Shown here in pieces: positions 10,390 through 42,780 of a DNA stretch of 64,000 nt. A program made the position numbers and the translations under genes. This stretch comes from Polyangiales bacterium (GTDB taxonomy: Bacteria > Myxococcota_A > Polyangia > Polyangiales > Ga0077539). The DNA is taken from the NCBI GenBank assembly GCA_044229975.1, contig JBGARZ010000005.1, forward strand, positions 32,001 to 96,000. The letters run 5' to 3'. Each line of letters opens with the position of its first letter. Position 1 is the stretch's first letter. The notes beneath the pieces were generated by a model. It was not told the origin of the DNA. It made no database searches and was given only the letters and a program-made list of their open reading frames with translations.

Positions 10390-10449
10390 GTCGGAGGCCG
10401 AGCACCGAGAGACCTTGAGGCGGGGGTGGCGCTCATCTGCCGCGAGGGC

Positions 10450-10634
10450 GCCCCGGGACATCCCGGCGCGGGTACTCGTCCGACACGAACCCGCCCCGGG
10501 ACATCCCGGCGCGGGTACTCGTCCAACACGAACCCGCCCCGGAACGTCCCGGCGCGGGTACTCGTCCAACACGAACCCGCCCCGGAACGTCCCGGCGCGG
10601 GTACTCGCCCGACACACGGCAGCCCCAGGACACC
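10450..10634. repeat. 43-bp tandem repeat, 4 full copies plus a partial fifth, each with two hairpins
   Basis: Unit gccccgggacatcccggcgcgggtactcgtccgacacgaaccc starting at 10450, 10493, 10536, 10579 and (partial) 10622. Confidence 0.95.
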
Positions 10635-14665: not shown

Positions 14666-17600
14666 CTATCGGTCGCAGGTCGTGATGTTGGTGAAGCTGA
14701 ACCAGTAGATCGGGTGCAGCGCCCCCATGCCGTAGACGCCGTCGACGGCGACCTGTGAGGTGGACTGCGGGAAGGACGAGTAGTCCACCCAGCGGCCGTT
14801 GTTGTTCACGTCGGAGAGGATGCGGTACGTCGCGCCCGCCGTGATGCTCCAGCTGGGAGTGAACACGAACGACGGCGCGCCCGCGGGCACCGCCACCGTC
14901 GCGAGCGTGGTGCCCGCGCCGTCAGTCAGCCGGATGGTGTCGGCCTGGCCCTGGTTCTGGAAGCGCACCGACGTGATGGTCGCGTTGCGCAGCGCGCGGA
15001 ACTGCATCCCCGACGTCGGCCACCCGTTGATGTTGTTGGTCAGCGTGGGACCGGCCACGGCGCCGCAGACGCCGACGCACGTCCCGGCCGTGCAGGTGAG
15101 GCCCGCGCCGCACGCGCCGCCGCAACGACCGCAGTTGGCCGTCGAGGTGCGGAGGTCGACCTCGCACCCGTTGGCCGGGTTGCCGTCGCAGTCGCCGAAG
15201 TTGGAGTCGCAGGTGAAGCCGCACACGCTGCCCGCGCAGGTGGCGGTCGCGTTGGCCCGCGGCGGGCACGCGTTTCCGCACGCCCCGCAGTGGCTCACGC
15301 TCGACGTCAGCGCCGTCTCACACCCGTCGGCGCGCGAGGCGTTGCAGTCCCCGAAGCCCGAAGCGCACACGAACCCGCAGGTGCTCATCGCGCACGCCGC
15401 GCGCGCGTTGGTCGCCGCCGGGCACACGGTGCCGCAGGCCCCGCAGTTCGTCGGATCGACCGCCGTGCTCGTGCAGGCGAGCCCGCACGCGGTCAGCCCC
15501 GCGCCGCAGCTCACCTGGCAGGAGCTCGCCGAGCACACCTGGCCCGACGGGCAGGTCACGCCGCAGGCGCTGCAGTTGAGCCGATCGTTGGTCAGGTCGA
15601 CGCAGCGACCGCCGCACACCGTCTGCCCCGACGGGCACACCAGGGTGCACACGCCGGACGTGCAGACCTGACCGGCCACGCACGCCGTCCCGCACGCGCC
15701 GCAGTTGGCCCGGTCGGTCTGGAGGTCGCGGCACACGCCCGAGCACGCGATGAGGCCCGTGGAGCACGACAACACGCAGGTGCCGCCGGTGCAGACCTGA
15801 CCCGCGGCGCACGCCATCCCGCACGCGCCGCAGTGGGCCCGGTCGGTCTGGAGGTCGCGGCACACGCCCGAGCACGCGTTGAGGCCCGCGGCGCAGCTCA
15901 CCACGCAGGCTCCGCCCACGCACACCTGGCCGCTCGCGCACGCCATCCCGCACGCGCCGCAGTGGGCCCGGTCGGTCTGGAGGTCGCGGCACGACCCGGT
16001 GCAGTTGGTGAGCGATCCGCCGCACGACACGGTGCAGGCGCCCGCGGTGCAGAGCTCGCCCGCCGCGCACGCGCGGCCGCACATCCCACAGTTGGTCGGG
16101 TCGGTCTGGAGGTTGCGGCAGATGCCGCTGCAGTTGGTGCCGGGCGTTCCGCACGACACGATGCAGGCCCCGGCCGAGCACACCTGACCAGCGGCGCAGG
16201 TCACCCCGCACGCGCCGCAGTTGGCGCGGTCGGTCTGGAGGTCGCGGCACGACCCGGTGCAGTTGGTCTGCGACGCCGGGCACGACACCTCGCATCGGCC
16301 CGCGGTGCACACCTGGCCCGCCGCGCACGCCATCGCGCAGCCGCCACAGTTGGCGCGGTCGGTCTGGAGGTCACGGCACACGCCGCTGCACGCGGTGAGC
16401 GCGCCGTCGCACGAGATCACGCACACGCCCGCGGCGCACACCTGGCCCGCCGCGCACAGGATCCCGCACGCGCCGCAGTTGCCACGGTCGGTCTGGAGGT
16501 CGCGGCAGGTCGTGCCGCAGGTGGTGAGCCCCGTCGGGCACGAGACCACGCACGCGCCGTTGGTGCACACCTGACCCGCCGAGCAGGTCGTTCCGCACCC
16601 GCCGCAGTTGGCCCGGTCGGTCTGGAGGTCGCGGCACGAGCCCGCGCACTCGGTGAGGCCCGCCACGCACGACGTCACGCACGCCGAGCCGGAGCACACC
16701 TGACCCGCGGCGCACGCCATGCCGCAACCGCCACAGTGGGCGCGGTCGCTGGTGAGGTCACGGCACGAGCCGCCGCAATCCGTGAGGCCCGCCACGCACG
16801 ACGTGACGCACATGCCCGCCGAGCACACCTGGCCCGCCGCGCAGACGCGCCCGCACATCCCGCAGTGCGCGCGGTCGCTCTCCAGCTCGCGGCACGAACC
16901 GCCGCAGTTGGACTGACCCGCCGGGCACGACGTCACGCACATCGCGCCCGAGCACACCTGGCCCGCCGCGCACGCCGTCCCGCAAGCGCCGCAGTTGGCG
17001 TTGTCGCTCTGGAGGTCGCGGCACGACCCCGAGCAGCTCGTCTGACCGACCACGCACGACGTCACGCAGGCGCCCGCCGAGCACACCTGGCCGGTCGCGC
17101 AGGCGGTGCCGCAGGTGCCGCAGCTCGCGCGGTCGCTCTGGAGGTCACGGCACGCGCCCGAGCAGGCCGTCTGCCCCACCGGGCAAGAGGTCTGGCAAGC
17201 GCCCATCACGCAGGCTTCGCCGGGCATGCACGCGACGCCGCAGCCGCCGCAGTGGAGCCGGTCGGTCTGCGTGTCACGGCACGCGCCCGAGCAGTCGACC
17301 TGACCCGTGGGGCACGAGGTCACGCACGCCCCCGCGGAGCACGCCTGACCGGCGGCGCAGGTGGTCCCGCAGGCGCCGCAGTTGGCGCGGTCGGCCTGGA
17401 GGTCGGCGCACACGCCCACGCCCCCGTCGGCGGTCGCGCCGCACACGGTGAAGCCCGGCAGGCAGCTCACCACGCAGCGGCCCGCCTCGCAGGCGCGCCC
17501 GGCGCCGCAGGCGTTGTTGCACGCGCCGCAGTTGACCGGATCGCTGGAGAGCATCGCGCAGCGGCGCACACCACCGGCGCTGGTGCAGGTCTCCAGGCCC

Positions 17601-18043
17601 GTCTGGCAGTTGGAGGCGCAGGCACCGTTGGAGCACACCTCACCGGGGCCGCAGCGACGGCCGCACGCGCCGCAGTGGTTGCCGTCGGTCTGGAGCAGCA
17701 CGCACACCTGCGCGCCGCCATCGCCTTCGAGCGCGCACGCCTGCTGCGCCGACGGGCAGGCGGTCTGGCACTGACCAGCGACGCAGCGGTCGCTCCCGGT
17801 GCAGCGGCGGCCGCACGCGCCGCAATTGTTGTCGTCGGTCGCGGACGTCACGCAGCGGCCGTCACAAAGGAGCTGGCCCGCCCCGCACGTGAGGCCCTGG
17901 TCGACGGCGATGTCTACTGTCACGTCCTCCCCCGCGTCATTGCCGCTGACCACGGAGTTGGACGAGGTACAGCCTGTCGCCCACAGCGCCGCCATCATCG
18001 CGGCGGCGATCAATCGATATCTTGCTGGTTGTTGCATGGACAC
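14666..18043 (-). CDS. Cys-rich repeat lipoprotein (MXAN_6577/Stig1-like repeats) with C-terminal beta domain
   Basis: Lipobox ATGC; about 21 copies of a ~43-aa C..L.TD..NCGACG..C..GQVC..G.C unit. Confidence 0.85.
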   Translation of the reverse strand: MSMQQPARYRLIAAAMMAALWATGCTSSNSVVSGNDAGEDVTVDIAVDQGLTCGAGQLLCDGRCVTSATDDNNCGACGRRCTGSDRCVAGQCQTACPSAQQACALEGDGGAQVCVLLQTDGNHCGACGRRCGPGEVCSNGACASNCQTGLETCTSAGGVRRCAMLSSDPVNCGACNNACGAGRACEAGRCVVSCLPGFTVCGATADGGVGVCADLQADRANCGACGTTCAAGQACSAGACVTSCPTGQVDCSGACRDTQTDRLHCGGCGVACMPGEACVMGACQTSCPVGQTACSGACRDLQSDRASCGTCGTACATGQVCSAGACVTSCVVGQTSCSGSCRDLQSDNANCGACGTACAAGQVCSGAMCVTSCPAGQSNCGGSCRELESDRAHCGMCGRVCAAGQVCSAGMCVTSCVAGLTDCGGSCRDLTSDRAHCGGCGMACAAGQVCSGSACVTSCVAGLTECAGSCRDLQTDRANCGGCGTTCSAGQVCTNGACVVSCPTGLTTCGTTCRDLQTDRGNCGACGILCAAGQVCAAGVCVISCDGALTACSGVCRDLQTDRANCGGCAMACAAGQVCTAGRCEVSCPASQTNCTGSCRDLQTDRANCGACGVTCAAGQVCSAGACIVSCGTPGTNCSGICRNLQTDPTNCGMCGRACAAGELCTAGACTVSCGGSLTNCTGSCRDLQTDRAHCGACGMACASGQVCVGGACVVSCAAGLNACSGVCRDLQTDRAHCGACGMACAAGQVCTGGTCVLSCSTGLIACSGVCRDLQTDRANCGACGTACVAGQVCTSGVCTLVCPSGQTVCGGRCVDLTNDRLNCSACGVTCPSGQVCSASSCQVSCGAGLTACGLACTSTAVDPTNCGACGTVCPAATNARAACAMSTCGFVCASGFGDCNASRADGCETALTSSVSHCGACGNACPPRANATATCAGSVCGFTCDSNFGDCDGNPANGCEVDLRTSTANCGRCGGACGAGLTCTAGTCVGVCGAVAGPTLTNNINGWPTSGMQFRALRNATITSVRFQNQGQADTIRLTDGAGTTLATVAVPAGAPSFVFTPSWSITAGATYRILSDVNNNGRWVDYSSFPQSTSQVAVDGVYGMGALHPIYWFSFTNITTCDR

Positions 18044-22674: not shown

Positions 22675-22899
22675 CGTCAGGACCCGCCAACGGGCCGTAC
22701 CTCCTGTGTACGGCGTGTCGTGGACTGCGAGCGTGACCGTCGCGCGCCGCGCTGACGCCGCGGCGTGGGCCCCGGGGACTGCGGACGTGGCGGACCCGCG
22801 TCGCCTATGCCGAACTCCGGGCTGTCACGAGCAGCCGTACCTTGACCATCTCCCTTGAGCCATTGGCCCTCTCGTCCGGTCTGGAGTACCTCCGCCCGA

Positions 22900-24327
22900 A
22901 TGGTCGCCACCGCCCGCCTCGCCCTCTTCGCTTCCCTCCTCGTCGCCTGCGCCCCGCGCTCGGTCGACGCGCTTCTCGACGTCCCGTCCTCGCGCGACGC
23001 CAGCACCGATCAGCCCGCCGCCGATGTGCCTCCATCCATCGACGTCCCGCCCGCCGTCGACATCCCCATCGCTGTCGACATCCCCATCGCTGTCGACATC
23101 CCCATCGCTGTCGACATCCCCATCGCTGTCGACATCCCCATCGCTGTCGACATCCCCATCGCTGTCGACATCCCACCCGCTGTCGACATCCCACCCGCTG
23201 TCGATGTTCCGCCCGCTGTCGACGTCCCGCCCGCCGTCGACGTCCCACCCGCTGTCGATGTCCCGATCGTCGTCACCACGCCCGTCGCCCAGGTCAGCGC
23301 GGGCTTCGAGCACACCTGCGCCGTCCTGCCCTCTGGAGTCGTGCGCTGCTGGGGCGCCAACGACCACGGCCAGCTCGGCGACGGAACCACCACCTCCCGC
23401 ACGCGCCCGACCCCGTTGCCCACGCTGAGCGGCGTCGCCGAAGTGAGCGGCGGGCGGGAGTTCTCCTGCGCGCGACTCACCGCCGGCGGAGCGCGCTGCT
23501 GGGGCCGCAACCAGTACGGTCAGCTCGGCGACGACGCGAGCACCGGGAGCCCCACGCCCACCACGGTGCAATCGCTCTCCGGCGCCGCCGAGATCGCCGC
23601 GGGCGGCTACCACGCCTGCGCGCGGGCCACCGACGGACGCCTGCGCTGCTGGGGCTACAACGCCGTCGGCGCCGTCGGCGACGGAACCACCCAGCCGCGC
23701 AACACGCCCACCCTCATCGCCGGCCCGACGGACATCGCGCAGGTGGGCCTCGGCAACTTCTCCTCCTGCGCGCGTCGCACCACCGGCGCGGTGGTCTGTT
23801 GGGGCGACAACGACTTCGGCCAGATCGGTGACGGCAGCCTCACGCAGCGTAACGCGCCCGCCACGGTCATGGGCCTCACCGGCGCCACGCACCTCGGGGT
23901 GGCCACGTCGAGCGCGTGCGCCGTGCGGGGCGACGGCAGCGTCTGGTGCTGGGGCCGCAACGAGTACGGACAGCTCGGCGACGGGAGCGCCACCAACCGA
24001 TCGACCCCGGTGCAGGTCGCGGGGCTCGCGGGCGTGGCCGCCATCGCGGGTGGCGGAGGCTTCTTCTGCGCGCGCATGGCGGACGCCACCGTGCGCTGCT
24101 GGGGCCGCAACACGGTCGGGCAGCTCGGCGACGGGACCACCACCAATCGCCGCGTTCCGACAGTCGTCCCGGGCCTGAGCGGCGTGGCGGAGGTCACCGT
24201 CGGCGACGCCCACGCGTGCGCGCGGCTCACCACCGGCGAGCTCCGCTGCTGGGGCGAAAACGAGCGCGGTCAGCTCGGCGACGGAACCACCACGGCCCGC
24301 CGCCAACCCACGCTGGTGGTGTTCTGA
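22900..24327 (+). CDS. RCC1-repeat lipoprotein with hexapeptide-repeat linker
   Basis: Lipobox LVAC; seven C(W)G.N..GQLGDG repeats. Confidence 0.9.
   Translation: MVATARLALFASLLVACAPRSVDALLDVPSSRDASTDQPAADVPPSIDVPPAVDIPIAVDIPIAVDIPIAVDIPIAVDIPIAVDIPIAVDIPPAVDIPPAVDVPPAVDVPPAVDVPPAVDVPIVVTTPVAQVSAGFEHTCAVLPSGVVRCWGANDHGQLGDGTTTSRTRPTPLPTLSGVAEVSGGREFSCARLTAGGARCWGRNQYGQLGDDASTGSPTPTTVQSLSGAAEIAAGGYHACARATDGRLRCWGYNAVGAVGDGTTQPRNTPTLIAGPTDIAQVGLGNFSSCARRTTGAVVCWGDNDFGQIGDGSLTQRNAPATVMGLTGATHLGVATSSACAVRGDGSVWCWGRNEYGQLGDGSATNRSTPVQVAGLAGVAAIAGGGGFFCARMADATVRCWGRNTVGQLGDGTTTNRRVPTVVPGLSGVAEVTVGDAHACARLTTGELRCWGENERGQLGDGTTTARRQPTLVVF
23020..23271 (+). repeat. 18-bp coding VNTR (VDIPIA/VDVPPA, about 14 units)
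   Basis: gtcgacatccccatcgct x6 perfect from 23056, followed and preceded by variant units. Confidence 0.95.
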
Positions 24328-25499
24328 TGGAGCGCGTGGCGAGCGCCCTCCTCCTCGTCGTGACGACCCTTGCGGGCTGCGCCAACACCGTCACCGTCAC
24401 CGACGCCTCGGCCGACGCCAGCGTCGACGATGCGACCGACGCCTCCGTCACCCCGCGGGCCGTCGCCCAGATCGCCGCGGCGGGCGCCTACTCCTGCGCG
24501 GTGCGTTCGGACGGACGCGTGCGCTGCTGGGGGCGCTACGGGATGGGCCCCGACGCGGGTGTCGCCGAGAGCGCGGCGCCCTACGAGGTGGCCGGCCTCA
24601 CCGACGCCATCGAGGTCACCGTGTCGCCCGACACACCGGGCAGCGCGTGTGCCCTCCGCGCGGGTGGTCAGGTCGTGTGCTGGACCATCCGCACGCGCAC
24701 CGCCCCCGAAGCCGTCGCCGAGCTGCCGGCCGTCGCGCACATCACGAGCGGGTCGGGCCATCGATGCGCGCTCACCACCGAAGGCGAGGTCCTCTGCTGG
24801 GGAACCAACCGCTTCGGCAAGCTCGGTCGCCCCACCGACATGACCGCGGAGACACCCGCGAGGGTGCCCGGGCTCGCTCCGGTGCGCGCGCTCTCTTCAG
24901 GCGAGGCCGAGACCTGCGCGGTGACGCGCGACGGTCAGGTGTGGTGCTGGGGACGTAACCACCGCGGTGCGCTCGGCGACGGCGTCACGAGTGGACACGG
25001 CTGCCCCGTCGAGGGGGAGGACTGCTCCTTCGCGCCGGTGCGCGTGGCGGGCCTCGACGCCGCGACGAGCGTGTCTGTCGGGCTCAACGGCGCCTGCGCC
25101 GTGCAGCGCGGTCGCGCCTGGTGCTGGGGCTGGAACAACAACGGCCGCCTCGGCGACGGCACCGACGTCGACCGCCCGACCCCGACGGAGGTCCGTACGC
25201 CGGGCGAGGTCGCGTCGGTGTACTCGGGCTACCTCACGGGCTGCGCCATCGGCGTCCGCGGCGCCCTGTGGTGCTGGGGCTACGACCAGGGCCCAACCGT
25301 CGATGGGATGACCCTCCGGGCGCTCTCTCCGACGACCGTCGCCGGGGTCGACCGCGCGGTCGAGGCGACGGGCGGCTGGTACCACCTGTGCGCGCTGCGC
25401 GACGACGGCGCGGTGCTCTGTTGGGGCGGCAGCGACTTCGGACAGCGCGGCATCGACGGCGATGCAGGCGCCGCCGCGACGCGCGTCCCCGGACTCTAG
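24327..25499 (+). CDS. RCC1-repeat lipoprotein
   Basis: TGA/ATG overlap at 24325-24329; MERVASALLLVVTTLAGC; repeated CWG.N..G.LG. Confidence 0.88.
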   Translation: MERVASALLLVVTTLAGCANTVTVTDASADASVDDATDASVTPRAVAQIAAAGAYSCAVRSDGRVRCWGRYGMGPDAGVAESAAPYEVAGLTDAIEVTVSPDTPGSACALRAGGQVVCWTIRTRTAPEAVAELPAVAHITSGSGHRCALTTEGEVLCWGTNRFGKLGRPTDMTAETPARVPGLAPVRALSSGEAETCAVTRDGQVWCWGRNHRGALGDGVTSGHGCPVEGEDCSFAPVRVAGLDAATSVSVGLNGACAVQRGRAWCWGWNNNGRLGDGTDVDRPTPTEVRTPGEVASVYSGYLTGCAIGVRGALWCWGYDQGPTVDGMTLRALSPTTVAGVDRAVEATGGWYHLCALRDDGAVLCWGGSDFGQRGIDGDAGAAATRVPGL

Positions 25500-36729: not shown

Positions 36730-36820
36730 GCCCAACGGCTGGCCGCTGTGCCACCGCAGTGGGCGGGGTGGGGTGGTGATGAGTGGAGTGGGAGCGGTCG
36801 GCACCATCGGCTTGTTGGGC
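36730..36820 (-). other. attC: attC site 7 (91 bp)
   Basis: Minus strand GCCCAAC AAGCC GATGGTGC ... GCACAGC GGCCAGCC GTTGGGC. Confidence 0.9.
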
Positions 36821-36821
36821 A

Positions 36822-37520
36822 CTAGCCACTGCCATTGATGACTAGCACTTTGCGCCCCGTTCCGCCATCCGCTTCCCAGCCGTATTTCGTCACACCTCGG
36901 CGTCCCAAACACTCGCAAGTTGCGGTGCCGCTCGCCGTTGCGTTCATGAACTCAACGATCAGAAGACTCCGCAAGGCCATTCGGGACACCAAGCTGTCGC
37001 ACATTCGGCCAAGCGCCTCGCCGGAGTAGTATTGCAGTACCTTGCGACAGACGATCAGGTCGAACGGGCCCGTTTCGACTGAGGCGTCGGCAATGTCGCC
37101 TCGAACAAAGCGAATGGTCCCACCAGCACGATACGGCGGAGTCCATACGCACTGTTTCGCGAGCTTGCCTTCTCTGTAGGTGTCATACCGGTGCTCGCGA
37201 ACCGTTGGCGCCGCGCAGTTCGCTTGTAGACGCAAGAGCGCTACATCCGAGATGTCTAGCGCTGTGACCTCTGCTCCCATCGCGACAAAGTCGAGAGGTT
37301 CGATCGAGACACCGTTACCGGCAAAGAGAGCCCGAGACACTGGCGTCGATTCAAAGTACTCCCGCATTTGGAACGCCAACGAGTAGATGGGGAGTGAATC
37401 GCCCGCATGGCTCGCCCACCACTTGTTCCACCATTCAGGGTTGCGAACCTCCTCGGCGTGGTGGCGACCACCTGAGGTGGCCTCTCTTCCCGAGAACAGG
37501 CTACGGATGAACGAAAGCAT
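36822..37520 (-). CDS. cassette 7: class I SAM-dependent methyltransferase
   Basis: RBS gagga; LFAGNG, VTALDIS, GDIAD...FDLIVCRKVLQYY; stop abuts attC. Confidence 0.8.
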   Translation of the reverse strand: MLSFIRSLFSGREATSGGRHHAEEVRNPEWWNKWWASHAGDSLPIYSLAFQMREYFESTPVSRALFAGNGVSIEPLDFVAMGAEVTALDISDVALLRLQANCAAPTVREHRYDTYREGKLAKQCVWTPPYRAGGTIRFVRGDIADASVETGPFDLIVCRKVLQYYSGEALGRMCDSLVSRMALRSLLIVEFMNATASGTATCECLGRRGVTKYGWEADGGTGRKVLVINGSG

Positions 37521-37533
37521 GGTCCTCTGTATC

Positions 37534-37624
37534 GCCTAACGACTGGCCGATGTGCCGCCGCACCGGGCGCGGCGGGTTGGCAGTGGGTGAAGCGGGGGCG
37601 GTCGGCACCATCGGCTTGTTGGGC
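37534..37624 (-). other. attC: attC site 6 (91 bp)
   Basis: Minus strand GCCCAAC AAGCC GATGGTGC ... GCACATC GGCCAGTC GTTAGGC. Confidence 0.92.
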
Positions 37625-37647
37625 ACGTCAGGTCGCATGCGTCACAT

Positions 37648-38127
37648 TCACAGGTAATCAAAGAACCGGATCCACCAAGTGATTCGTCCGTCGTTGAGCG
37701 CGCGGTTCTTGCCGTCGTAGATCTCGCCGAGTTCGTCTGCTGGCACATATCTCCAGCCTCGCAGTTCGACCACTGCCCTGATTCTATCCACCGGGTAGTT
37801 TGTCAGAGTGTCCGGCACGGCGCTGTAGATCGTATAAAAGCGCCCGAAGTTCGAGAACCGCACCGCGATCTCGGGAGTGAGGGCTACGACGCCATTCGCG
37901 CGAAAGCTGTCCGGATGAAGTCGGCGCAGTTCGTCGTGAAAGGATGCGTCTTGCACATACCCATCGCGGTCAAACGGCAGATTGAGTTCATTGCGTAGAG
38001 TTTCCTGAATGCTCCCAACGCTTGCCGCGAGTGCGTCGTACGGGAAGGCCGCCCAATTCTCTCCGGGCACCTCGCAACCGACGGGGTCGTCAGAGTCGTC
38101 GAGCAGTTTTCGAAGCGCTGGATTCAC
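37648..38127 (-). CDS. cassette 6: hypothetical protein
   Basis: GTG 38127 just inside the core site; ends ...WWIRFFDYL before attC. Confidence 0.75.
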   Translation of the reverse strand: MNPALRKLLDDSDDPVGCEVPGENWAAFPYDALAASVGSIQETLRNELNLPFDRDGYVQDASFHDELRRLHPDSFRANGVVALTPEIAVRFSNFGRFYTIYSAVPDTLTNYPVDRIRAVVELRGWRYVPADELGEIYDGKNRALNDGRITWWIRFFDYL

Positions 38128-38135
38128 GGATACCT

Positions 38136-38226
38136 GCCCAACGACTGGCCGCTGTGCCGCCGCCACGTATCAGGTGACTGTTCCTCTGGCTGATTGGACG
38201 CGGTCGGCACCAGCGGCTTGTTAGGA
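38136..38226 (-). other. attC: attC site 5 (91 bp)
   Basis: Minus strand TCCTAAC AAGCC GCTGGTGC ... GCACAGC GGCCAGTC GTTGGGC. Confidence 0.9.
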
Positions 38227-38518
38227 ATGCTGAACCTTGCTGGCGACGCGATGGTGGCAGTGCCGGACGTGGGACGCAGGCCAACCGTGGTCGTTGCCGT
38301 GGTCGTTGCCGTGGTCGTTGCCGTGGTCGTTGCCGTGGTCGTCGCCGCGGCCGTCGCCCTCGCCGTCACTGCCCACTGCCTGGCCGTCACGTCGCTCGTC
38401 TCCCATCGCTCACAGTTCGCTGCTCGAAGACCGTTGTCCGTTGTCGGACGCTTGCTTCCTCGCCGATCGTGGCCCGATTCGTGCTCTTCGCAGGGCGCCG
38501 CTCGTCGCTCTCCGAGCT
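38227..38518 (-). other. cassette 5: no convincing gene; 12-bp tandem repeat; possible 61-aa His/Asp-rich peptide (38221..38406)
   Basis: ccgtggtcgttg x4 plus 2 variants at 38285-38356; bounded by matching GTTAGGA/TCCTAAC cores. Confidence 0.7.
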
Positions 38519-38609
38519 TCCTAACGGCTGGCCGATGTGCCGCCGCAATGAGCGGGAGATCCGTTCCTGAGGCTGAGTGCGAGCGGTCGGCACCATCGGC
38601 TTGTTGGGC
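38519..38609 (-). other. attC: attC site 4 (91 bp)
   Basis: Minus strand GCCCAAC AAGCC GATGGTGC ... GCACATC GGCCAGCC GTTAGGA. Confidence 0.92.
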
Positions 38610-38699
38610 ACGCCGCCCGCTGCCCTGTCCACGCGCATGTGCGACGTCACGCCATTGCTCTCCGTGAACTCCGTAGCGCCGGACCCAAGACGATCGGCA

Positions 38700-39251
38700 T
38701 CAGTCGCGCTTCCATAGCGAGAGGAATTCCGCGGCTACCACCAACGTTCGGCCGCTGTCGGAGAACCCGAATGCCCGTAGCTCGGGCCAATCCTTGACCA
38801 ATAGGAACTCCCTGTCCGATTCGCTGGATGGGTCGTCGTAGGGGACTTTGAGCACCAAGCTCTCACAAGGCCAGTTGGGCGCGATTCGACGGACCTTCCA
38901 TCCGTCCGGGGTGAAGGCCTTGAGCCCTCCCCCCCACAAGCCAGCAACGGGGATGCGCCGGCCGGCGAGCGGCCCGATGCCGACAACCGACACGGGGTAA
39001 GGGTCGTGCTCGCCCTCCGCGTTGCCGCTGTGGCCAGGTTCGTCGGCCAAGGTGTCGCCCGTCTTGGCGTCGACCACGGTCAGTCCGTCGTGGGTCAGCA
39101 CAACCAGCCACTCGGTGCCCGGTGCGAAACCCATCGCGACGGGCATCTCGAAAAATCTCTCCACCGACACCCGCGCCCAAGGGGGCGGCGGATTGACCCT
39201 CTGGCGACTTCGCCACTCTGCACGAATCTTTCGGATGCGCTCATTGGTCAT
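38700..39251 (-). CDS. cassette 4: hypothetical protein (beta-rich)
   Basis: 183-aa ORF filling the cassette; AGLWGGGL..TPDGW, AFGFSDSG. Confidence 0.75.
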   Translation of the reverse strand: MTNERIRKIRAEWRSRQRVNPPPPWARVSVERFFEMPVAMGFAPGTEWLVVLTHDGLTVVDAKTGDTLADEPGHSGNAEGEHDPYPVSVVGIGPLAGRRIPVAGLWGGGLKAFTPDGWKVRRIAPNWPCESLVLKVPYDDPSSESDREFLLVKDWPELRAFGFSDSGRTLVVAAEFLSLWKRD

Positions 39252-39316
39252 TGAGTCTTCGGCCCTGATCGAAGGGCCTTGTCGCTCTCACGCTGCCAAC
39301 CCGTGGGGCCGAGGCT

Positions 39317-39407
39317 GCCCAACGACTGGCCGATGTGCCGCCGCAGCGGGCGCGCCGGGTTGGCGGTGGATGAAGTGGGAGCGGTCGGCACCATCGGCTT
39401 GTTCGGC
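39317..39407 (-). other. attC: attC site 3 (91 bp)
   Basis: Minus strand GCCGAAC AAGCC GATGGTGC ... GCACATC GGCCAGTC GTTGGGC. Confidence 0.92.
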
Positions 39408-39441
39408 CAAAGTGGTCGCTGCGACGGCAAGATGGCAGCCA

Positions 39442-39831
39442 TCATGCAATCCAGCATTTTTCCGAGGTGATCTGCTGAACGCTGCCATCACGGCCGAACG
39501 CGACGAACCACGTCCCACCATCACCCAACCCACCGCTAGTTACGCAGCCGAACGAAATCTCAACCTCGTCCGATTCAAGCGGTTTCGCACTCAAGTGGTA
39601 TCCGTGAGCCTTGCCTGTGTAGAAGATCGTGTCGAGGTCGAGGCCAGCTGTAAGTTCGCTGTGAAGAAGTTTGCACGCCAAGATGTGAGTTTCGGTGTCT
39701 GCACACTGGAGAAAGAACGCAGTCACCTTCTCATCGCCAAGGAAGCCTCGCGCCACCGCCACCTCTTTCTCCCGCCGTGTCTTGGGTGTTTTGGTCTTCC
39801 GTCGCTTCACAGGGCGTCCCTCCACAAGCAT
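39442..39831 (-). CDS. cassette 3: hypothetical protein
   Basis: 129-aa ORF filling the cassette, lower GC; start uncertain. Confidence 0.65.
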   Translation of the reverse strand: MLVEGRPVKRRKTKTPKTRREKEVAVARGFLGDEKVTAFFLQCADTETHILACKLLHSELTAGLDLDTIFYTGKAHGYHLSAKPLESDEVEISFGCVTSGGLGDGGTWFVAFGRDGSVQQITSEKCWIA

Positions 39832-39909
39832 CCCGCTGCCAAGTCTGTGCTCGATCGCGGCGCGCTACCCAATCCTTACTTGCACGCAGCGGCACTCGTC
39901 GAGTCCGCT

Positions 39910-40000
39910 GTCGAACGGCCTGCCGATGTGCCGCCGCATCGGGTGCGACGGGTTGGCAGGGGGTGAAGCGGGGGCGGTCGGCACCATCGGCTTGTTAGAC
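39910..40000 (-). other. attC: attC site 2 (91 bp)
   Basis: Minus strand GTCTAAC AAGCC GATGGTGC ... GCACATC GGCAGGCC GTTCGAC. Confidence 0.9.
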
Positions 40001-40028
40001 CAACGGTATGTCATCTGGGTGTCGCTCG

Positions 40029-40529
40029 TCACTCGCCAGTCTCCATTGGGAGCAAAGGCGTTTCTGCCGAACGCCTGAAGTAGCCGGAAACGGCGGCGCC
40101 CGCGTTAGCGAAGAAGCGAGCGTCTTCCTCGTCATCCTCCGGCCGGGCAAGGCGCCACAGAGAGATTTGCCACTCCTGAAAAATGAAGGAAAAGCCGGGA
40201 TCGGTAATGGCACGATCAAATGGTGTGAAGATGTCGAGTGCAGGGATGAGGTCCGATGCTGGCGTCGCAAGCAGATCGTACCCTTGAAACATGACGGCGA
40301 CAGGGCCGCCACGGCACACCTCAATGAACTCCGCGGTGTCTGTCGATCGCTGATAGAACACCTGGAAGGAATTCCCGAACCAGGCATCGGCAAGTGGATC
40401 GTCCGCGAGCATGTTTTTCTGGAAGCTGACGGGAGTCGACCCCATAGCCGCTCGCACTTCCATCCGCGATGCACCCAATCTCACTGGACCGATGCCGACG
40501 AGGGGAATGATGTCAAAGCGAAGCTGCAT
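40029..40529 (-). CDS. cassette 2: hypothetical protein (immunity-protein-like N-terminus)
   Basis: FDIIPLVGIGPVRLGASRMEVRAAMG; acidic 166-aa ORF; RBS-like aggtga upstream. Confidence 0.75.
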   Translation of the reverse strand: MQLRFDIIPLVGIGPVRLGASRMEVRAAMGSTPVSFQKNMLADDPLADAWFGNSFQVFYQRSTDTAEFIEVCRGGPVAVMFQGYDLLATPASDLIPALDIFTPFDRAITDPGFSFIFQEWQISLWRLARPEDDEEDARFFANAGAAVSGYFRRSAETPLLPMETGE

Positions 40530-40649
40530 CGGCGTCCGTCACCTATCGTTTCGTGGCTCGCTACTCGTTGATCGCGGCACGCCAACCATGGCTCTCCGCT
40601 CTGGGATCGCGGCGCGGGTCTTGCTCTTCCGTAGGCCGCTGCTCTGGGC

Positions 40650-40740
40650 GTCTAACGGCTGGCCGGTGTGCCGCCGCACTGGCTGCGTTGGGTTGCCATT
40701 GAGCACATCGTGGGCGGTCGGCACCACCGGCTTGTTAGGA
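40650..40740 (-). other. attC: attC site 1 (91 bp)
   Basis: Minus strand TCCTAAC AAGCC GGTGGTGC ... GCACACC GGCCAGCC GTTAGAC. Confidence 0.9.
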
Positions 40741-40828
40741 GGCAGCCTGCGCCCCGCCTGCCCGCGCCTCGCGCCTTGCTCATCCGGCGTCAGTGGCTGC
40801 TTGTCGTCCATTGCTCCGTCACCCCGCC

Positions 40829-41146
40829 TTACGTCGCTTCTCGCGAGGCTCTCGCTCGGCCGCCGGACAGTTCAAGCCACTCGACGATCACGTCGGCCGT
40901 CTCGACGAGTGACGTCGTCGTGACGCGCCCTCCGTGCTTGTCCGTCTCGACAAGGAACGGGCACGCGCCGGAGCTCGACTCGATCTGGACTTCGCCCGGC
41001 CGACTTGGAATCCAGAAGAACCACAGGCCGTCGTCGTCTGCGGTATGTGTGACTGACAACTGCTCCCATTCCACGTTGGGCAACCGTGCTCGCACCAGCC
41101 CGATCAGTTCCTCGATGTCCGGCGTTATCGTGGAAACAGTCCCCAT
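40829..41146 (-). CDS. cassette 1: hypothetical protein (105 aa)
   Basis: RBS ggag, ATG 41146 MGTVSTITPDIEE...ADDDGLWFFW...QIESSSGACPFLVE. Confidence 0.75.
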   Translation of the reverse strand: MGTVSTITPDIEELIGLVRARLPNVEWEQLSVTHTADDDGLWFFWIPSRPGEVQIESSSGACPFLVETDKHGGRVTTTSLVETADVIVEWLELSGGRARASREAT

Positions 41147-41226
41147 TACTCCACCCGCACGCGGCTTGAACCCGATGGGAGACTTTCTCGTTCCAGACTG
41201 CCTCGAACCCTCGCCAGTGTCGCGCC

Positions 41227-41245
41227 GCCTAACATCTCGTTCACC
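41227..41245 (-). other. candidate attI simple site
   Basis: Minus strand GGTGAAC-GAGAT-GTTAGGC (L box, 5-nt spacer, R box); core matches R'' of attC1 (TCCTAAC). Confidence 0.6.
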
Positions 41246-41281
41246 CCGCGCCCCATTGCCGAATCCCGTCTTTGGCGCTGC

Positions 41282-41357
41282 TCGCCCGCTTGCTACCCAA
41301 CTCCATATCCCCATTCGCGTAGTTCGCCCGCTCGCTGCCCAATTCCATAACCCCATT
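41282..41357. repeat. imperfect 34-bp direct repeat x2, 42-bp period
   Basis: tcgcccgcttgctacccaactccatatccccatt / tcgcccgctcgctgcccaattccataaccccatt. Confidence 0.85.
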
Positions 41358-41667
41358 TCGGCGCTCTTCGCCAGCCTCTCCTCTCCTCCGCCGCGTCGCC
41401 CTCCTCCCGACCCGCGCCGCGACGGCCTCGCCCCGCAGCTCGAATCCACCCGAGTTCGTCACGGCGCTGAGCTCGCGGCCCGGCGTGGCGACGTCGACCT
41501 CCCCCGACGCCCTCCGCACGAAGCTCCCCGGCGCCTCGACCCGCTCACGAGTCCACCCTCCAGCCCGCCGTCCACCACGCCGCCCAGGCCGCAGCCATCG
41601 ACCAGCGCCGCCTGCCATACCCCTGCCACACCCCTTCCCCGCCCCTTCCCCACCTCCAACGCCCCTC

Positions 41668-41796
41668 GTCATCCCCGACCTGCACCAGCGCCCCTCCCCG
41701 ATGACCCACGGTCATCCCCGCCCCGCATCTCCGCGACCTCCCCATGACCCGCCGTCATCCCCGACCAGCACCCACGCTCCCTTCGACCGCGCCGAC
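41668..41796. repeat. degenerate C-rich 43-bp tandem repeat x3
   Basis: gtcatccccg at 41668, 41711 and 41754; atgaccc recurs in units 1 and 2. Confidence 0.75.
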
Positions 41797-41889
41797 CCAT
41801 CGGACACCTGCGTTCGCGCTCCCTTCTCATGGCGCTTGCCTATCGCCAGTCCCACCAGAGACAACCGGCGATCAAGGGAGGTTATGTTC

Positions 41890-42780
41890 ATGGGGAAGAA
41901 GAACGTTCCAACCAACGCTCCGGGTCATGCAGCGGGCGGCGACGGCGCGCCCCCGGTCGGCGACGCGCAGGCCGCGTACGAGTCGCGCAAGGCCGCGTGG
42001 AAGGCCCTCGGCGGCGTCGAGCTCGGTCCGCCGCGCGTCAACCTCGGCTTCGTCACGGCGCGGGTGCTCCAGATCGGCCGCGCGCTCGCGGAGCCCGGCA
42101 CGCTCGCATCCTTCGACGCGCTCGCCGCCGTGCCGCTGGCCGACGCATCCCCCTACGACGCAGGCGCCGTGCGCCGGCTCCCGGTCATCGCCCTGGCCCT
42201 GTGGCACGCGCGCTACTGCTACCTCACGGCCTCGGCGCAGGCGACGACCGTCGCGCTCCCGCCCGAGACCGTCGCGGCCGCCACGAAGCTACGCGAGGTG
42301 ATGCTCCGCGTCGTGGCCTACCACTGCGTCGACGCCAACAACCCCGACGACAAGGTCGCCGCCGACCTCGACTCCATCCGCGCGGTCGAGGGCCCTCGCT
42401 ATCTCGACCTCGCCACCGACCTCTCGCGCCTCGCGGCCTACTACCGCGACCCTCGCTGGCTCCCGGTGTTCACCACCGATACGCGGCACTTCCGCGCGTC
42501 CGACGGCGAGGCCGCCGAGAAGGCCGCGGCCGACATCCTCGCGCGGCTGCACCAGCGCACCGACGAGGCAGCGACGTGGCTCGTCGAGCTCTACCGCGGC
42601 TGGGCCGACCTCCAGCGCACCTACGACGTCGTGCGGCGCGGGGCGAGCTTCGTGTTCTGGGGCGACGAGGCGAAGGTGCCGCCGCTCGGGTCGCTCCGAC
42701 CGGCGGCGCGCAAGGCGACCAGGGCCGGGGAGACGGAAGAAGACGAAGACCCGATCACCCCTCCCCCGCCGACGACGTGA
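41890..42780 (+). CDS. hypothetical, predicted all-alpha protein (296 aa); not an integrase
   Basis: RBS gggagg 41876-41881; host-like codon usage; no HxxR..Y tyrosine-recombinase motifs. Confidence 0.8.
   Translation: MGKKNVPTNAPGHAAGGDGAPPVGDAQAAYESRKAAWKALGGVELGPPRVNLGFVTARVLQIGRALAEPGTLASFDALAAVPLADASPYDAGAVRRLPVIALALWHARYCYLTASAQATTVALPPETVAAATKLREVMLRVVAYHCVDANNPDDKVAADLDSIRAVEGPRYLDLATDLSRLAAYYRDPRWLPVFTTDTRHFRASDGEAAEKAAADILARLHQRTDEAATWLVELYRGWADLQRTYDVVRRGASFVFWGDEAKVPPLGSLRPAARKATRAGETEEDEDPITPPPPTT

Follow-up and report, generated by a model that had tools for sequence, protein, structure and literature searches.

A probable trans-served integron platform with a decayed integrase gene, next to a gene with its own phased palindromes, in a Polyangiales genome

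The stretch of DNA that we analysed, 64,000 nt from a Polyangiales bacterium and hereafter the window, carries seven gene cassettes on the minus strand, an attI-like head, the remains of an integrase gene and, beyond them, a divergent gene for a 296-aa protein (P0001). We consider it probable that a chromosomal integron copy kept its attI and its seven cassettes while the local intI decayed, that the array is served in trans by the IntI encoded on contig C4 of the same assembly, and that the neighbouring gene is an independent passenger. As a core finding a decayed integron is ordinary; the unit of repeat array plus gene found at integron heads is undescribed. The features of the locus are listed below, in window coordinates.

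36730..41232, minus strand: seven-cassette array, GC 0.62 versus about 0.72 over most of the window
36730..36820, minus strand: attC 7, the last of the array
36822..37520, minus strand: ORF of cassette 7, with a SAM-dependent methyltransferase domain (PF13649, E 2e-6)
37534..37624, minus strand: attC 6
37626..38133, minus strand: cassette 6, with an ORF ending at 37648 and of no family; 93% identity to a cassette of an array on G000:C23
38136..38226, minus strand: attC 5
38141-38525, minus strand: cassette 5, with a 12-bp repeat and no convincing ORF
38519..38609, minus strand: attC 4
38611..39314, minus strand: cassette 4, with an ORF at 39251-38700 of no family
39317..39407, minus strand: attC 3 (ORF of cassette 3 at 39831-39442, no family)
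39910..40000, minus strand: attC 2 (ORF of cassette 2 at 40529-40029, no family)
40650..40740, minus strand: attC 1 (ORF of cassette 1 at 41146-40829, no family)
41227..41245, minus strand: attI simple site, with L box GGTGAAC at 41245-41239, a 5-nt spacer and R box GTTAGGC at 41233-41227
41272..41382, minus strand: attI accessory repeats, two 42-bp units and a partial third
41392..41541, plus strand: first piece of the intI remnant (intI nt 484-633, roughly codons 162-211, with the integron-specific insert among them), frameshifted
41545..41647, plus strand: second piece of the intI remnant (intI nt 714-818, roughly codons 238-273, the decayed H-x-x-R region)
41667..41772, plus strand: repeat array of P0001, period 43, 2.5 copies
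41890..42780, plus strand: P0001 gene for a 296-aa all-helical protein, with GGAGG at 41877-41881, 8 nt before the ATG

An earlier note on this DNA had described the head as GGTGAAC-GAGAT-GTTAGGC without an attC arm, and this description was borne out on the minus strand: the attC profile search gave no match at the head, and the 91-nt stretch beginning at 41227 shows no fold (z = +0.27), while the first attC does (z = -3.07). The inverted L and R boxes, with an R box of the form GTTRRRY, stand at the head of the array, and sites of this type lie upstream of intact integrase genes. In two relatives (G014 and G021) the attI core is found 160-180 nt upstream of an intact intI, and in a third (G002) the 42-bp repeat of the window adjoins one. 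This direct repeat, also pointed out before, is real, with two copies at 41272-41355 that are 81% alike; depending on the head, the accessory repeats comprise from 2 to >4 copies of 42-bp units. A degenerate attI pattern matched once within the 64-kb window and never in 100 shuffles, and the pattern GGTGAAYNRGATGTTRGRC gave 10 matches across the 31 genomes of the family and 0 in the reversed control. An attC follows in eight of the ten cases. The search for further copies of the motif, which had been proposed as a check, thus returned five matches in the source genome (G000), every one heading an array; with a profile made from 15 heads, the source assembly holds eight attI heads. The 155-nt head of the window shows 94% identity to the C2 head and 91% to the C23 head. 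Its distal 63 nt match the head that adjoins the intact intI in G002, with a conservation about equal to that of the intact intI genes (86%; the remnant stands at 73%). Judging by the sequence, the motif at 41227 is a real attI, in which the crossover G|TT would fall at 41233/41232.

Among the heads of G014 (L067 and L176), G004 (L071, L213 and L215) and G002 (L219 and L220), solo ones have 82-84 nt in common with the intact head that their genome carries. The shared part starts at a distal GTTAGGG box, and some heads are tandem-stacked. Solo and stacked heads suggest that IntI may be able to move a whole attI unit. Besides, three heads are interrupted precisely at the attI crossover G|TT by a 2.7-kb element that encodes a tyrosine recombinase and an IS91-type Y2 transposase (G000:C19:433340-436050; the contig end of G000:C2 at 354644-354783; and G001:C151, L175), and its right-end motif is present at a fourth head (L220). 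The element may target attI sites; among literature titles and abstracts we found no paper on a recombinase/IS91-type element in attI.

Regarding the DNA between the head and the 296-aa gene, it had been read as about 500 bp of low-complexity sequence, with an orphan gene occupying the intI position. That position is instead held by an intI pseudogene (41392-41647), followed by a period-43 array (41667-41772), and the ORF lies beyond; the roughly 500 bp of C-rich DNA are mostly dead intI. Window positions 41391-41538 share 73% identity with the C4 intI over 149 nt (E 3e-15 genome-wide), and a DNA profile of eight intact intI genes gives the remnant 44.6 bits, the best of 500 shuffles reaching 2.5 bits. 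Both its strand and its side are as expected of a native intI. The window does not hold a complete integron, given that the adjoining intI is reduced to a frameshifted nt 484-633 and to nt 714-818; the last 130 nt of the gene are absent. At conserved G positions, 11 of 38 are changed, eight of these to C, a shift that gives 41392-41647 its C-rich look. The branch of the remnant is about 0.45-0.48 long. The local intI would have been lost through deletions at both ends and one inside, followed by point decay. A second remnant, covering intI nt 480 to 945, accompanies the C28 array of the source genome; a shared origin of the window (C20) and C28 remnants has a support of 89/85 with 15 rows and of <80 with 20 rows. 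The proposal that intI was displaced by a repeat-plus-gene unit survives in part. The gene with its 43-bp array does begin where the remnant stops (intI nt 818), the array starting 20 nt past its end; the 42-bp repeat, as its context in G002 tells, belongs to attI, and it was at the opposite side that intI lost its 5' half.

Three remnants, from no fewer than two IntI lineages, start at nt 480-488 of intI (window 41392, G000:C28:41971 and G042:C17, L180:4292), and deletions may have had a hot spot there. The preferential loss of G from the intI coding strand, 11/38 at window 41392-41647, recurs with 9/31 at G000:C28:41971-42378. The GC skew of window 41358-41860 is -0.43, and values below -0.3 are found in 1 of 66 long co-directional gaps genome-wide.

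In the synteny check on whether intI sits here in relatives, all seven that have the flanking MMPL gene carry other genes after it (7/7), with no empty site, and the other flank of the locus is not syntenic in relatives. The integron locus is lineage-specific. Within it lie the seven attC sites (minus strand, 36730-40740), and every cassette opens with a GTT box that agrees with the R'' box of the attC of that cassette in six or all of the seven positions (6/7 for the first cassette). The likeness between attC sites is 0.79 within arrays and 0.78 between arrays. Cassette 4 shows 91% identity to a cassette in the second C23 array and 84% to the leading cassette of an intact G021 integron, and the four-fold-site distances of cassettes 4 and 6 to their C23 counterparts are 0.10 and 0.14, to be set against the 0.45-0.48 or so of the remnant branch. 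Short G002 cassettes contain sequence related to cassette 5, turned the other way round. Another cassette is present once in the G000:C19 array and twice in tandem at G000:C23:1-1019, with 97-99% identity; C19 and C23 may be one locus split by the assembly, or the sharing may reflect a recent copy.

Only one intI of the source assembly, that on contig C4, scores above the TIGR02249 cut-off (414.8 bits, cut-off 265), and R132, K157, H263, R266, H289 and Y298 are invariant in its product. Across the family, we fetched 74 head regions from the attC matches listed; leaving out 26 without attI and five with <1.5 kb of flank, 43 heads were counted. Among these matches, 10 heads have an intact intI, 8 have remnants of differing extent and 25 have none, so that 33 of the 43 are without an intact integrase gene. 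Cassettes common to integrase-less arrays at 91-93% identity suggest service in trans, and since the local intI has decayed, the window array is likely to be loaded and shuffled by the C4 IntI to this day. The C4-made IntI would bind the R and L boxes and the accessory repeats, and a folded attC would be recombined into G|TT at 41233. The earlier note had offered, as one option, a secondary attI platform served in trans. With one intact intI, eight heads and shared cassettes this is the best reading, although the platform would have originated as a full integron whose decayed intI had been missed.

One could argue that the array is a frozen relic, or that it is served by a second, cognate intI missing from the assembly, with the C4 IntI unused here. 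We hold this to be unlikely, while recognising what speaks for it. The C4 intI adjoins a related but different attI variant, CCTACT-GAGATGTT, whose L box and repeats differ from those of the window, and non-cognate attI/IntI pairs are described as generally inefficient in the accessible part of PMC8946536; together these count against the C4 IntI serving the window attI. The assembly is 93% complete, hence a second intI may be missing, and one C23 array starts at a contig end. Against this reading, the C4 IntI is 84-85% identical to IntIs standing beside the window type of attI, and the head, the attC sites and the cassette ORFs are intact in contrast to the heavily decayed local intI. The sharing of cassettes 4 and 6 at 91-93% argues against a frozen array, though not against a missing intI; it would fix neither the direction nor the date of copying, and a pseudogene branch and coding silent sites are different clocks.

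The divergent ORF at 41890-42780, which the earlier note had pointed out, is real and coding-like by the codon model. Its AlphaFold model (pLDDT 90) is made up of ten helices without any strand; the catalytic fold of integrases has a small beta-sheet. The structure prediction and Foldseek search that had been proposed for this protein led to an all-helical model with generic bundles and no named fold: Foldseek against PDB and BFVD gave no match at E <= 0.001, and VIA-align retrieved generic helical bundles, the best of which (6n63, an iron-binding protein; Z 8.7 over 102 residues, rmsd 3.4) is below the level that counts for helical folds. P0001 has no Pfam, NCBIfam or PADLOC match. As had been said of the single ORF with regard to the R-HxxR-Y set, the R-K-H-R-H-Y set is absent from the family consensus. 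With no profile match, no catalytic set and no recombinase among the structural matches listed, a cryptic recombinase or integrase was rejected as improbable. The nearest named Atlas cluster, DUF6261 (PF19775; score 0.81), was a lead only, and was rejected too: the profile-profile probability against 29 DUF6261 proteins is 0.3% (reversed control 0.1%), and PF19775 has no match in the source genome at E 10.

Fifteen proteins are close homologues of P0001, and the family as a whole comprises 895 clusters at 50% identity, mostly from Myxococcota where the phylum is known. The source genome holds 13 paralogues, two of them at integrons, and scoring 80 candidates per genome gave at least 294 family genes in 31 genomes. 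No internal duplication was found in the family. The pI of P0001 is 6.0, and no known DNA-binding fold is among its structural matches. Away from integrons, the family has ParE among its neighbours, as well as an N6 methylase, AAA_21 ATPases and an IS91 transposase, these three upstream at the closest homologue loci; in a control sample of 34 window genes there are no such genes. Scans for sigma-70 promoters and terminators found nothing, which is weakly informative for a GC-rich organism. Four metagenome loci of the family showed no integron parts. In the literature outside subscription journals we met no description of the family or of myxobacterial 42-bp intergenic repeats.

Upstream of the gene, the period-43 array carries a palindrome, GATGACC-N3-GGTCATC at 41700-41716, common to the close homologues of P0001. 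Of the 326 loci fetched, nine contain the palindrome ATGACYNNNRGTCAT, in each case upstream of a P0001-clade gene (several loci overlap), and it occurs five times in G019 at a 42-43-bp spacing. More widely, a strong upstream period was detected at 15 of 48 family loci, 14 of these with 42-43 bp, compared with 5 of 83 control genes. P0001 has, then, a private phased array upstream that is conserved with its protein clade. The attI heads match this palindrome no better than random DNA, and there are therefore two different repeat systems, one belonging to attI and the other to the gene. The predicted target of P0001 is this palindrome array of period 43 and not attI, and we propose that a dimer would coat the phased palindromes and regulate its own gene.

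Tandem arrays of similar period are numerous: 77 of period 41-44 bp were found in the source genome, including one at window 10449-10615, and most of them are neither attI heads nor close to P0001-family genes. At G000:C38:867032-867090, sites resembling the P0001 palindrome lie 42 bp apart and no family gene was detected. Elsewhere in the window, 14666-18043 and 22855-25496 encode large repeat proteins, with repeat units of 43 codons (Cys-rich, period 129 bp) and of 50 codons (period 150 bp), the latter of which we take to be RCC1-like; there is also an 18-bp repeat at 22985-23342.

We then come to whether the family is tied to integrons. Among the matches listed, a family gene lies <=3 kb from 7 of 43 heads (0.14 expected from genome density), or from 6 of 42 when the window locus is left out, and from 0 of 49 array tails (Fisher P 0.008); the profile used included the adjacent members, loci within one genome are not independent and some of the counted tails may not mark where an array really stops. 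At one tail, a family gene stands 5.7 kb past the last attC. The family seems largely confined to this group, and for this reason a wider scan of 80 intI loci, mostly from other phyla, in which neither an earlier, less sensitive profile nor a later one detected a family gene, was left out of the enrichment. The head-adjacent genes come from about seven separate lineages, and on a quick family tree the integron-adjacent members account for 7 changes, against a shuffled mean of 7.6. The five closest homologue loci in relatives have no attC, attI or intI (0/5), and six genomes (G013, G016, G022, G024, G045 and G046) hold 4-23 family genes with no attC-pattern match.

The speculation that P0001 might be an unrecognised accessory factor comes out divided. 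A dedicated role finds no support, with the closest homologues off integrons, family genes in attC-less genomes, no integron-confined homologues or clade and a palindrome absent from attI; the co-location with integron platforms is non-random, the family being much overrepresented at their heads. The proposed test of co-occurrence with attC arrays is likewise two-sided, positive at 7 of 43 heads among the matches listed and negative at the five closest homologue loci. The P0001 gene is likely an independent passenger with its own array. On the simplest reading, it would be part of a relocating unit retained in dispensable DNA near mobile and defence loci: gene and array would relocate together, land or survive preferentially there, and have the intI side of integron platforms among their favoured landing zones. 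A plain hot-spot model does not readily yield an enrichment so strong, nor one so clearly on the side of the heads and not the tails.

A different account of this enrichment is that the family is a facultative integron partner, recruited repeatedly to the intI side, where a protein bound to phased 42-43-bp DNA next to attI would modulate IntI access or cassette expression. We find it doubtful. It would explain the counts at heads and tails given above, with or without the window; the locus G042:C17, which repeats the window order exactly (attI, remnant, array, gene) and fell below the attI threshold of the survey; the family gene that adjoins an intact intI at G019:C24; and the common period of 42-43 bp in the gene arrays and these attI repeats. 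Nevertheless, 36 of the 43 heads and 9 of the 10 intact integrons among the matches listed are without a family gene, and about 9 of the at least 294 family genes sit at heads. There is no integron-linked clade and the orientation varies; the palindrome of the gene is absent from attI, and most of the 77 arrays of period 41-44 bp in the genome are elsewhere. Going one step further, and with slightly lower expectations still, one may imagine the integron of these Myxococcota as distributed, a single IntI serving as many as eight attI platforms, while P0001-type proteins, time and again recruited to the intI side, are cis-linked regulators that build a phased nucleoprotein by attI. If true, such regulators would set which attI platform receives or expresses cassettes.

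Returning to the head itself, it seems to us very improbable that it is younger than the remnant, that is, that IntI excised an attI-plus-cassette segment at a core-like box on its distal side, and that the segment then entered a pre-existing intI pseudogene already lying beside the 296-aa gene. Such a transfer would fit with C20, C2 and C23 heads that are 91-96% alike against 73% for the remnant, with the 82-84 nt that the solo heads of G014 and G004 share with an intact head from the GTTAGGG box, and with attI-bounded cassettes being mobile with IntI1, as the accessible part of PMC12901181 has it. However, the segment common to C20, C2 and C23 does not start at a GTT box, there is no intI 5' half at the array tail, and the orientation and side of the remnant are exactly those of a native intI. 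Finally, a degenerate attC or a chance match at 41227 is refuted for practical purposes: the R box does resemble the attC R' box, as at every integration site, but there is no attC arm or fold, shuffles and reversed controls gave 0 matches, and the type adjoins intact intI in relatives.

CALINs are usually regarded as headless leftovers, a view that goes back to attI not being searchable for the majority of taxa. The present analysis defines attI for one entire bacterial family, and most integrase-less arrays keep one. Eight heads and one intact intI in the preferred reading of service in trans make the supply of remote platforms, an idea long stated and rarely tested, testable with one enzyme and several natural sites. 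P0001 and its clade-specific palindrome, for their part, form a matched pair for a large family without an assigned function. The roughly 40-fold, one-sided enrichment at heads among the matches listed calls for an explanation, whether functional or in terms of landing sites. In the literature outside subscription journals we encountered no description of these attI sites, of myxobacterial CALINs or of multi-attI Myxococcota genomes.

Known systems resemble this locus in part. In the cases of F sopC with SopB, and of KfrA, a protein is matched to a phased array that serves as operator or centromere. Like them, P0001 has palindrome-bearing repeats about four helical turns apart beside its gene; unlike them, it is chromosomal and multi-copy, with no adjoining partition ATPase and no ParB-type fold. 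By its seven attC sites and the sole intact intI on C4, the window element is a CALIN with an intI pseudogene, which is a known kind. The accessible part of PMC4889954 reports intI pseudogenes near 15 of 279 CALINs and places half of CALINs in IntI-encoding genomes, with intI loss as one listed origin; it treats attI as unsearchable outside classes 1-3 and defines CALINs regardless of attI. The window shares with the CALINs of that source (PMC4889954, as far as accessible) an attC cluster without a functional neighbouring intI, and differs from them in keeping an attI with accessory repeats and in an attI multiplied across the chromosome. In Xanthomonas, intI is truncated by frameshifts or deletions while arrays persist, and remote CALINs are said to be mobilisable in trans, according to the accessible text of bioRxiv 10.1101/2025.06.18.660453. 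There, as far as that text goes, intI occupies one conserved locus (ilvD) and CALINs a few conserved places (bioRxiv 10.1101/2025.06.18.660453), whereas in the family of the window the platforms are scattered over many lineage-specific sites, every one having an attI to itself, and the remnants differ in extent. Regarding attI1 of class 1 integrons, the accessible parts of PMC8946536 and PMC3146285 describe the same inverted L and R boxes, GTTRRRY end and intI-side direct repeats as in the window. Compared with DR1 and DR2 of attI1, the head of the window has a different sequence and 42-bp repeat units, to which the binding of IntI is predicted.
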